From the sequence record PV340558: a DNA stretch of 47,390 nt. One strand, written 5' to 3'. Within the stretch, counting starts at the first letter, position 1, and each line of letters begins with the position of its first letter. The notes beneath the pieces are model-generated. The model was given only the letters and a program-made list of their open reading frames with translations, did no database searches and was not told where the DNA came from. The stretch is from Escherichia phage PhiR30_1. Of this stretch, positions 10,666-12,350 are shown piece after piece. The position numbers and the translations under genes are program-made.

Positions 10666-10702
10666 ACTATGTACATAAAAATATCATTTTTTTAATACAT
10701 GT

Positions 10703-10909
10703 CTAATTATTGGACGAAATTGGTTTTTGCTTTGGTTTAGTTAGCCTAGCAATCAAGCCAGAGGCAATAATGATGATCCAAGCAATTTGATGCAATGCTA
10801 CTCCAATATAAGAACCTTTATAGATAATAAAGGCATAGATCGCTAGAAACGAAATAAATATCCATAACGAAAGTTGATAAATTTTGGCGCGCATATTTAA
10901 TCCAATCAA
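10703..10909 (-). CDS. Small hydrophobic membrane protein (moron)
   Basis: 68 aa with two hydrophobic helices; strongly AT-rich locus between ren and ninB. Confidence 0.5.
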   Translation of the reverse strand: MIGLNMRAKIYQLSLWIFISFLAIYAFIIYKGSYIGVALHQIAWIIIIASGLIARLTKPKQKPISSNN

Positions 10910-11150
10910 TCAGAAAGACGAGTAATCATAGAGGTACTATCACCCGGGTAACTATTGCTATTATGAACGGATAGGATAGAGGCTTCAATAACATATGCAT
11001 CAAGTATGATGGAATATGTAGGTGAAAATGACTTGTGTCAAATTTGTGGAAATGAGTACCATGTTTCTCTGAAATTGATGTCGTTAATGGCTAGTGATAG
11101 TGAACTTTTTTACTTTATAATTCCTTTGGTTATAACAATAAGGTAAATTT

Positions 11151-11711
11151 ATGAAGAAGATAATATTATTAGCCATGATTATTGGTTCTTTAACAGGTTG
11201 CGCTAGTGTGCCACCATTGAATTTTTCAACACCTAACGTGGGAGTTAGCCAGAAAAAAATAGATGCTGAAATTAAGTCATTAACGGTATCACTTGCTCGT
11301 CCAGATGAGCAGAAAGGGGATATCACTGCTGGTATGGAGGCTATAACTCCAATTTGGCGTGAATCTTTGCAGGAAGCACTCGACCGAATGACTATTTTTC
11401 GTGATAGTTCACCAAATACGGTTAGCTTAAATGTTAAAGTGTTGGCTCTTGACGTTCCTGCTTTTGGTGTTTCAATGACAACTAAAGCAATTGCAAGGTA
11501 TGAAATAATCAACCGTGCGAATGGTGATATTATATATACGCAGGATATTGAGTCTACCGGTACTGTTCCAGCCAGTTACGCATTCTACGGTATTGTTCGA
11601 GCACGCGAATCTGTTAATCGCGCGGTGCAAAACAACATAACGCAGTTCTTGCAAGCATTAGAAAGTGTTGATCTTTCTCGTCCAATGTTTCCTGTTAGGG
11701 TAGCTAAATGA
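11151..11711 (+). CDS. Lipoprotein (moron)
   Basis: Signal peptide with lipobox LTGC; 186 aa; AT-rich. Confidence 0.7.
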   Translation: MKKIILLAMIIGSLTGCASVPPLNFSTPNVGVSQKKIDAEIKSLTVSLARPDEQKGDITAGMEAITPIWRESLQEALDRMTIFRDSSPNTVSLNVKVLALDVPAFGVSMTTKAIARYEIINRANGDIIYTQDIESTGTVPASYAFYGIVRARESVNRAVQNNITQFLQALESVDLSRPMFPVRVAK

Positions 11712-12160
11712 AGCGATTATTCGTAATTGCTCCACTCTTAGTGTTGGTTGGATGCGCACAAAATATATCGCCAAATAGTTATTCTGTTGGCTCTGTGGGC
11801 ATGGTTAATCGAACTATCGCTGGTACAGTTATTAGTGCTAGGGGGGTTGATATCAGTGGGACTTCCGCGTTAGGCGGGACTGCTGGGGCTGCCGTGGGGG
11901 CAACCGCTGGTTCTGCGCTTGGTGGGGGAGTTCGTTCTAATATCGTTGGTGCCGTTGGTGGTGCAGTCATTGGTGGTATTGCCGGGGCAGCAATCGAATC
12001 TTCAGCAACAAAACAAACAGGCATGGAATATGTTGTCGAAACTGAGAATGGGAATTTAATGACCATTGTTCAAGGCAAAGATCCGTTATTTACTCAAGGA
12101 AGTAAGGTCCTTGTTTTATACGGAAACCCTTCTCGCATAATAACAGACCCGCGTCACTAA
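11708..12160 (+). CDS. Glycine-zipper outer-membrane lipoprotein (SlyB/Pcp-like)
   Basis: Lipobox LVGC; long Gly/Ala zipper GGTAGAAVGATAGSALGGG...IGGIAGAAI; ATGA overlap with upstream lipoprotein gene. Confidence 0.7.
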   Translation: MKRLFVIAPLLVLVGCAQNISPNSYSVGSVGMVNRTIAGTVISARGVDISGTSALGGTAGAAVGATAGSALGGGVRSNIVGAVGGAVIGGIAGAAIESSATKQTGMEYVVETENGNLMTIVQGKDPLFTQGSKVLVLYGNPSRIITDPRH

Positions 12161-12350
12161 CATACCTTTTGATTTTGTAAAATCAATTCGTAATAATAAA
12201 GTCATCGGAGCTTGAACAACTCCGGTGACTTCTGCGCTAAACGGGGACGTTTATGCGCACATACAATCCAAACTCTCTTCTCCCTTCACAGATGCAGAAA
12301 TGCACCTGCGATTTTTTGCATCCAGCGTCTGACCTCTGCGGAGGTGAAGC

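Follow-up and report, generated by a model that had tools for sequence, protein, structure and literature searches.

What is the AT-rich block of DNA lodged between ren and the nin genes of Escherichia phage PhiR30_1, and what might it do for a bacterium that carries the prophage? The stretch analysed here (sequence record PV340558, 47,390 nucleotides; hereafter the window) is a complete lambda-like E. coli prophage, with an integrase gene at its left end and an S24-type repressor gene, followed by O/P-like replication genes, ren and the series ybcN–ninE–ybcO–rusA–ylcG–Q (compare phage 82 and DLP12). Beyond Q lie an OmpC-family porin gene, lysis genes, bor, structural genes and a lom-like gene. 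The insert, at positions 10666–12166, separates ren from a phage-82-type nin leader and ybcN. It is a moron: a horizontally mobile operon of two genes for predicted outer-membrane lipoproteins, here termed A and B, that was gained between ren and the nin region.

The base composition of the insert deviates from that of the prophage around it. Its GC content is 0.398, compared with 0.504 for the window and 0.51–0.52 for the flanking O–P–ren and ybcN–rusA blocks, and equal AT-richness is found in only 3% of 1.5-kb windows across the 47-kb sequence. By part, GC content is 0.32 in the leader that precedes A (10666–11150), 0.405 in A and 0.472 in B, with values at third codon positions of 0.30 and 0.34 for A and B, respectively. 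The first-pass annotation, made by a model from the letters of the window, had described this drop relative to the neighbouring DNA, which the values bear out, and had listed three open reading frames (ORFs), all of which we locate at the coordinates given there. Its segment, 10666–12350, does contain a foreign stretch, but the right end was drawn too far: the foreign DNA stops at ~12166 and the conserved nin leader runs from 12167. The right flank matches its closest phage records, phage 82 and 4A7 among them, at 91–94% identity, beginning at window positions ~12165–12168. The same slot had been proposed as a moron insertion point with varying cargo, and relatives agree with this. In DLP12 of strain K-12, emrE, ylcJ, ybcK, ybcL and ybcM lie between renD and ylcH/ybcN; in phage 4A7, a recombinase-family gene and a minus-strand esterase gene lie directly 5′ of ybcN (the locus viewed stops short of ren). 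Both the deviating composition and the position between phage genes, where relatives hold other cargo, are those of a moron.

The mobile unit is smaller than the insert. In blastn comparisons with the closest foreign carriers (Klebsiella oxytoca, Serratia, Edaphovirga and three viral contigs), homology begins at or just inside the coding start of A (11151 or later) and ends at the 3′ end of B. Because nucleotide homology to other carriers is confined to A–B, the leader and a minus-strand 68-codon ORF within it (TM68) lie outside the mobile unit. Among 5,426 complete E. coli genomes, 280 (5%) carry the insert, always on the chromosome, in this slot, with the leader and at 99% identity or more; this identity and the single slot point to a single recent gain, followed by spread with one type of prophage. 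DNA and protein searches of the INPHARED phages did not find the insert. Elsewhere A–B occurs in Proteobacteria, mainly on chromosomes or islands, and its chromosomal copies sit in variable regions, surrounded by toxin–antitoxin genes and transposase fragments in Bordetella, by Y1 transposase, NERD and type VI secretion system (T6SS) effector genes in Luteimonas, by umuC-like, SRAP and AbiEii-like genes in K. oxytoca and by an integrase gene in Edaphovirga. An A/B locus in an assembly labelled Nocardiopsis yanglingensis (L031) has the length, layout and identity of Stenotrophomonas maltophilia loci and is most likely a contamination of that actinobacterial assembly.

Temperate phages have taken up these genes more than once. 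In IMG/VR, 15 viral contigs from outside E. coli carry the A family, four of which were inspected. In L099, the tape-measure gene and a minor tail protein gene flank the A–B pair; in L102 and L110 (GC 0.65), the pair is two genes away from a CI-like repressor gene, antisense to early-left genes; in L112 (GC 0.40), A alone is followed by a small secreted-protein ORF between NinB/Q and Ant/terminase. Counting the window, these are four different insertion positions in unrelated temperate phages, and such repeated capture argues for usefulness to the lysogen.

A and B belong together. The stop codon of A, TGA (11709–11711), overlaps the start codon of B, ATG (11708–11710), as ATGA, so the overlap reported in the first-pass annotation is confirmed at 11708–11711, and the two genes are translationally coupled. 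Judged by their sequences, with hundreds of homologues each, both are clearly real genes. We scanned one genome per species for pairing, which gave 71 loci encoding a relative of A in Alpha-, Beta- and Gammaproteobacteria; at 65 of these, a B homologue lies directly 3′ of A on the same strand, with its start within a few dozen bases. Clustering of all neighbouring ORFs at the 71 loci gave no third conserved neighbour and no toxin partner, and the other recurrent neighbour 'clusters' were discarded as shadow ORFs or Stenotrophomonas-specific synteny. The pairwise divergences of A and of B correlate with each other (r = 0.89). No natural A–B fusions were found; the longer members of the A family bear unrelated C-terminal extensions.

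A short motif at the C terminus of A follows this pairing. P[ML]F[PQ] is present in all 78 copies of A that are paired with B and in none of the 8 unpaired copies. It is also missing from every distant representative of the A family (less than ~50% identity), and the distant members with a readable neighbourhood are all stand-alone genes without a SlyB-like neighbour (4 of 4). The pattern is evidence, not proof, that the PMFP tail of A is a B-binding element. Two Photorhabdus loci (L050 and L053, ~6960–8050) have A alone, without B and without PMFP; the ORFs 3′ of A at these loci contain a peptide that recurs every ~20 residues (VHCRTGSLE / FLSCLYGSE), a pattern characteristic of CRISPR-like repeat arrays.

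B resembles SlyB over its whole length. In a phmmer search of all PDB chains, B matched SlyB (7ojf_A) with an E value of 1.3e-14, residues 2–149 of B aligning with residues 3–155 of SlyB; 7ojg was matched as well. The AlphaFold (AF2) model of B, of moderate confidence (predicted local distance difference test (pLDDT) score 73), consists of a beta segment, a two-helix hairpin (residues 55–101) and a C-terminal beta domain. In a Foldseek comparison of this model with the PDB, 7ojf_A was the sole significant match (E 8.5e-9, template modelling (TM) scores 0.59/0.63), the runner-up having an E value of 0.11. The Pfam models PF05433 and PF13488 gave B 21.1 and 16.9 bits, respectively, both below the cut-offs of 24.2 and 25; many B homologues at 65–75% identity carry precomputed matches to PF13488 or PF05433. 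We found 581 homologues of B, several of which are called SlyB by the Joint Genome Institute, and the subfamily is tight, its members being 65–77% mutually identical. B falls into PHROG family phrog_13877, of unknown function. On sequence and modelled structure, B is a full-length SlyB homologue, in line with the earlier description of the 150-residue product as SlyB/Pcp-like.

Both products had also been called lipoproteins, and the lipoboxes are in place: LTGC, with Cys17, in A and LVGC, with Cys16, in B. Cys16 is invariant across 43 homologues of B. Under the +2 rule, alanine after the lipidated cysteine leads to sorting to the outer membrane; alanine is found at +2 in A as well as in B, and both proteins should be bound for the outer membrane. 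In a Candidatus Porisulfidus metagenome-assembled genome, the gene 3′ of A (L063, 6555–6884) encodes a 109-residue B homologue that lacks the entire glycine-zipper hairpin and retains the N- and C-terminal beta segments, a natural 'soluble' variant of the SlyB-like fold.

The 186-residue product, A, had been left without a family. It can now be placed in a sizeable uncharacterised one (512 matches in a word-indexed search; 460 clusters at 50% identity in an exhaustive search), for which we predict a fold of the LptE/PqiC/PelC type. No Pfam or NCBIfam family model and no sequence relative in the PDB was found for A, and its PHROG family, phrog_12521, is of unknown function. Close relatives are 55–70% identical across Gamma-, Beta- and Alphaproteobacteria. 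The conserved features of A are an N-terminal tether, PPLNFSxPNVG, a helix motif, RxRESxNRxxQNNI, and the C-terminal PMFP. The AlphaFold model of A is confident (pLDDT 85.6), with the order beta-alpha-beta-beta-beta-alpha.

Both names under which A is found in databases are propagated misannotation. 'UDP-N-acetylglucosamine acyltransferase', widespread in NCBI and UniRef entries (Escherichia, Klebsiella, Bordetella, Xanthomonas, Lysobacter and Stenotrophomonas), is unsupported for a small lipoprotein with a predicted LptE-like fold. Newer runs of the Prokaryotic Genome Annotation Pipeline (PGAP) call A 'YajG family lipoprotein', as some RefSeq records do. PF03923, the YajG family model, matched none of 58 diverse A-family members at E ≤ 1, and scored E. 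coli YajG, as a control, at 176.8 bits; an hhalign comparison of A with YajG reached 90% probability but covered just 53 columns, which correspond to the signal peptide, lipobox and first strand. Assignment to the LptE family fared no better, PF04390 giving one match only, at E 0.018, among A and 57 diverse relatives. Pfam hidden Markov models (HMMs) of the PqiC/DUF330, PelC and HpaA types gave no match to A or these relatives, and the adjacency to mammalian cell entry (MCE; pqiB-like) genes that marks PqiC/DUF330 auxiliary lipoproteins was not found. Genes for lipopolysaccharide synthesis adjoin members of the A family in two cases: waaA–lpxK beside a stand-alone homologue that is 33% identical (L120, 1–2006), and a lipid A acyltransferase gene 1.7 kb from the Edaphovirga A–B pair (L008, 3337–4278). 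There was no recurrence in the other neighbourhoods inspected, and the link is anecdotal.

Table 1. Features of the ren–nin interval in window coordinates (strand: +, plus; −, minus;., not stranded; SD, Shine–Dalgarno)
Feature	Position	Strand	Remarks
ren	10372–10665	+	Borders the insertion on the left; identical E. coli records call it 'protein ren'
AT-rich leader	10666–11150	.	485 bp, GC 0.32; confined to the E. coli form of the cassette
TM68, hydrophobic ORF	10703–10909	−	68 codons from a TTG start; 63 codons from ATG at 10894; two hydrophobic segments
Sigma-70 promoter-like site	11094–11121	+	Candidate; GTGATA, 16-nt spacer, TATAAT; 10/12 consensus matches; 30 nt 5′ of the A ATG
SD-like sequence AAGG	11140–11143	+	Between the promoter-like site and the A ATG
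Lipoprotein A	11151–11711	+	186 residues; lipobox LTG-C17; uncharacterised family, predicted LptE/PqiC/PelC-type alpha/beta fold
Lipoprotein B	11708–12160	+	150 residues; lipobox LVG-C16; long Gly/Ala stretch; SlyB family, predicted glycine-zipper outer-membrane lipoprotein
nin leader, phage-82-type	12167–12350	+	Right flank; includes orf33/ylcH (12253–12354)
Hairpin	12199–12231	+	12-bp stem; within the conserved nin leader, 3′ of B and 5′ of orf33/ylcH
ybcN (phage 82 orf151)	12351–12806	+	First conserved nin-region gene; NCBIfam PRK09741, 278 bits; annotated 'DNA base-flipping protein YbcN'

SlyB offers a starting point for what such a pair might do. SlyB and YfgH have been described as proteins that form rings, stabilise the outer membrane and interact with BamA, LptD and OmpA/C/F; they protect under EDTA/SDS stress and co-purify with OmpA/C/F and LptD (bioRxiv 10.64898/2025.12.22.696046, and Janssens et al. 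2024, cited in that preprint). The title of one PDB entry among our Foldseek matches likewise refers to SlyB rings enclosing BamA. Extrapolating from the published behaviour of SlyB and YfgH, we propose that B assembles in the outer membrane in the manner of SlyB and that A binds to these assemblies by its tail and modulates them; expression in the lysogen and the resulting phenotype are further steps that we infer.

We give an even chance to the proposal that A–B is an outer-membrane module expressed by the lysogen, which reinforces or remodels the envelope and so brings about lysogenic conversion. The pair would be transcribed from its own promoter in the lysogen, as the candidate promoter and Shine–Dalgarno-like sequence 5′ of A (Table 1) would allow; B, too, is preceded by a Shine–Dalgarno-like sequence. 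B is a paralogue of SlyB, which oligomerises under stress in rings around outer-membrane proteins and lipid patches, and it would insert its two-helix glycine zipper to form similar rings. A would be its dedicated partner, with a predicted fold typical of ring-forming or barrel-associated outer-membrane lipoproteins; it would dock onto B, probably via the conserved C-terminal PMFP tail, and tune or cap the assembly. As a net effect, the outer membrane would be constitutively reinforced or remodelled by phage-supplied proteins, acting alongside the porin, Bor and Lom genes of the prophage.

Those genes form a background of their own. The OmpC-family porin gene (14414–15511, minus strand; 526 bits to NF007841) lies 3′ of Q, where DLP12 has nmpC, and further outer-membrane cargo consists of bor (17286–17579, minus strand) and a lom/Ail/OmpX-like gene (38383–38982, plus strand). 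With these genes in the same prophage, outer-membrane remodelling appears as a recurring theme of its cargo.

Several observations weigh against the proposed role in lysogenic conversion. The count of promoter-like sites in the region is not above that expected from shuffled sequences. Host slyB is PhoP-regulated; a PhoP box is absent within 250 nt 5′ of A, and control of A–B by such a box in the manner of host slyB was rejected on this ground. The association between motif and pairing reduces to ~4–5 independent loss events and is phylogenetically non-independent. A occurs without B in Photorhabdus, Budvicia and the viral contig L112, and B lacks its glycine zipper at the Porisulfidus locus, so that A and B are not strictly inseparable. 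As all 280 E. coli copies are at least 99% identical, the E. coli data are silent on selection. Finally, our literature searches found no experiment and no expression data on any member of the A or B family.

The pair could instead be passenger DNA, an accessory envelope operon caught by illegitimate recombination that is carried neutrally and possibly silenced by H-NS owing to its AT-richness, a possibility to which we assign roughly one chance in five. The E. coli copies, virtually identical and confined to one prophage slot, would fit one recent event; AT-richness is extreme in the leader, the promoter lacks statistical support and many carriers are chromosomal. A neutral passenger is harder to reconcile with the capture of these genes on at least three further, independent occasions by unrelated prophages, each time at another position, with ORFs for both A and B that are intact in at least 279 of the 280 E. 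coli genomes, and with genes that are translationally coupled and preceded by Shine–Dalgarno-like sequences.

Superinfection exclusion, the chief rival to lysogenic conversion, which we hold to be about as improbable as neutral carriage, would have A–B bind or enclose an outer-membrane phage receptor or block DNA injection (compare Cor and Llp, which act on FhuA, and TraT in conjugation). Several temperate phages have taken up the genes independently, once directly beside the immunity repressor; SlyB-type rings enclose BamA, and OmpA/C/F and LptD co-purify with SlyB and YfgH; and TraT is a chromosomal gene that mobile elements have repeatedly co-opted (PMC11733297). Yet the pair is mostly chromosomal or island-borne in very different bacteria, and 55–70% identity across three proteobacterial classes is hard to square with recognition of one fast-evolving phage receptor. 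PADLOC gave no match for A, B or the 68-codon ORF, the matched PHROG families, phrog_12521 and phrog_13877, have no known function, and Pfam, NCBIfam and PHROG scans revealed no sequence-family link to Cor or Llp. The homology of B to a housekeeping stress protein, which the first-pass annotation had itself named as weakening, further speaks against a dedicated exclusion role. Somewhat more doubtful still is a specific form of exclusion that amounts to a TraT split over two polypeptides, in which a ring of SlyB-type B, loaded or capped by A via the PMFP tail, would corral receptors and block the adsorption or DNA entry of competing phages; if true, the SlyB nanodomain mechanism would underlie superinfection exclusion of a new class.

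Many periplasmic immunity proteins are small lipoproteins, as is A. An immunity module in which A inhibits a periplasm-acting toxin (a T6SS effector, colicin, pyocin or lysozyme) is nevertheless very improbable: one chromosomal copy does lie ~4 kb from a PAAR-Tle1 effector gene and A weakly matches the T6SS lipoprotein IglE (E 0.039), but this match is essentially the signal peptide region (residues 3–65; 14 bits against a family cut-off of 75 bits), no toxin gene is conserved beside the pair in the 71 loci, and the conserved partner of A is a SlyB homologue and no toxin.

The minus-strand ORF of the leader had been included in the cassette by the first-pass annotation as a two-helix membrane protein gene. 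The reading frame and its hydrophobic segments are there (Table 1); its status as a real gene is unsupported, and it is not part of the mobile unit. The leader is present solely in the 280 E. coli genomes with the insert, bears no annotated feature in the records shown and had no match among phage records. An ORF of the length of TM68 arises by chance in 7–11% of composition-matched random sequences, and reading of the upstream sequence revealed no Shine–Dalgarno-like sequence 5′ of either the TTG or the internal ATG. The database relatives of TM68 are near-identical E. coli copies, called as 63 residues, and Pfam, NCBIfam, PHROG and PADLOC gave zero matches; the stretch is unannotated in the RefSeq records inspected, and its polymorphisms are few and do not discriminate coding status. 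TM68 is an unsupported ORF, unproven as a gene. As a member of the cassette it was rejected, its homologues being identical E. coli copies only, absent from other carriers and unannotated, with a chance of ~0.1 for its length.

The leader (11009–11031, at the start of a 46-codon ORF, MMEYVGEN...) and a segment of B (12023–12045, MEYVVETEN) share a 23-nt direct repeat whose copies are 83% identical. We considered the leader as a relic of the 3′ end of a slyB-like gene, on the basis of this repeat and weak collinear tblastn matches, an idea that gained no support: its score against the B-family HMM was equalled by 56 of 500 Markov shuffles. An Rfam scan of both strands of 10400–12600 gave just a meaningless match to a long non-coding RNA, far below threshold.

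In the conserved right flank, the stretch 12150–12260, which includes the hairpin in Table 1, has a predicted RNA folding energy of −36.7 kcal/mol (z −5.4), and a matching repeat in the phage 82 record is annotated 'possible regulator-binding site'. The hairpin was not detected as a canonical intrinsic terminator, owing to its weak U tract; it may be a tR2-like terminator, a processing site or a binding site.

Perfect matches to the PhoP-box pattern number two in the 47 kb. The first, a direct repeat TGTTTAGGGTTTGTTTA at 17632–17648 on the minus strand, lies ~53 nt 5′ of the start codon of bor. As borD of K-12 is a reported PhoP-regulated gene, bor of this prophage, judged by its upstream sequence, is probably under Mg2+/PhoP control. 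The second, TGTTTATATTTTGTTTA at 47001–47017 on the plus strand, lies close to the right-hand end of the window, in what is probably host DNA.

By itself, B would be another SlyB paralogue. Recent work has shown that glycine-zipper lipoproteins of the SlyB type are induced by stress and organise the outer membrane, and has so far studied them as stand-alone proteins; here a distinct SlyB subfamily is identified whose members are nearly always encoded next to a dedicated and highly conserved lipoprotein partner, which is ~60% identical across three proteobacterial classes. The A–B pair is undescribed in the literature that we searched (SlyB with YajG or with prophage, accessions, and glycine zipper with superinfection exclusion), and three features appear to be undescribed: the pairing with a partner family for which Pfam has no model, a tail motif that goes with this pairing, and the repeated recruitment by temperate phages. 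If the pair is active in lysogens, it would provide a new lysogenic-conversion or exclusion function that works through outer-membrane nanodomains. Its two genes, which 5% of complete E. coli genomes carry, would then form a tractable system in which to study the regulation and targeting of SlyB-like rings, and the misleading database names of A ('UDP-N-acetylglucosamine acyltransferase' and 'YajG family') would be corrected. If it is silent cargo, it is an ordinary moron.

Among known systems, SlyB (7ojf/7ojg) and the Pcp/Rickettsia 17-kDa antigen family are the closest to B, which is alike end to end: lipobox, N-terminal beta segment, predicted two-helix zipper hairpin and C-terminal beta domain. 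B differs from SlyB in being 27% identical in the Foldseek alignment, in forming its own tightly conserved subfamily found on prophages and islands, and in being encoded almost always directly after a partner lipoprotein, with no PhoP box found 5′ of the pair; E. coli slyB stands alone. The E. coli genes yfgH–yfgI were considered as a parallel pair of a glycine-zipper protein and a partner and set aside, YfgI being, by eye, a charged, coiled-coil-like secreted protein unlike A. A shares its predicted fold type with LptE, PqiC (DUF330, XCC0632), PelC and HpaA, at a sequence identity of just 6–15%; no lptD, pqiAB or pel genes lie near A at the 71 loci, and A has motifs of its own (PPLNF, RxRESxNR..QNN and PMFP). 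YajG (PF03923) is, like A, a lipoprotein of ~190 residues, the alignment between them being limited to the N terminus. A search of viral folds in BFVD returned nothing with a TM score above 0.4.

TraT, which confers surface exclusion by the F plasmid and serum resistance, consists of one polypeptide, for which sequence comparison detects no homology to either A or B; B does not resemble it significantly in structure, and its exclusion function is not transferable to the pair. The nearest parallel in genetic setting is with the envelope morons of lambdoid phages (bor, lom and the nmpC-type porin gene, and cor and llp elsewhere), which are likewise small genes of foreign composition between conserved modules. 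A–B differs from them in its protein families, in being a two-gene operon and in occupying the ren/nin slot rather than the late region.

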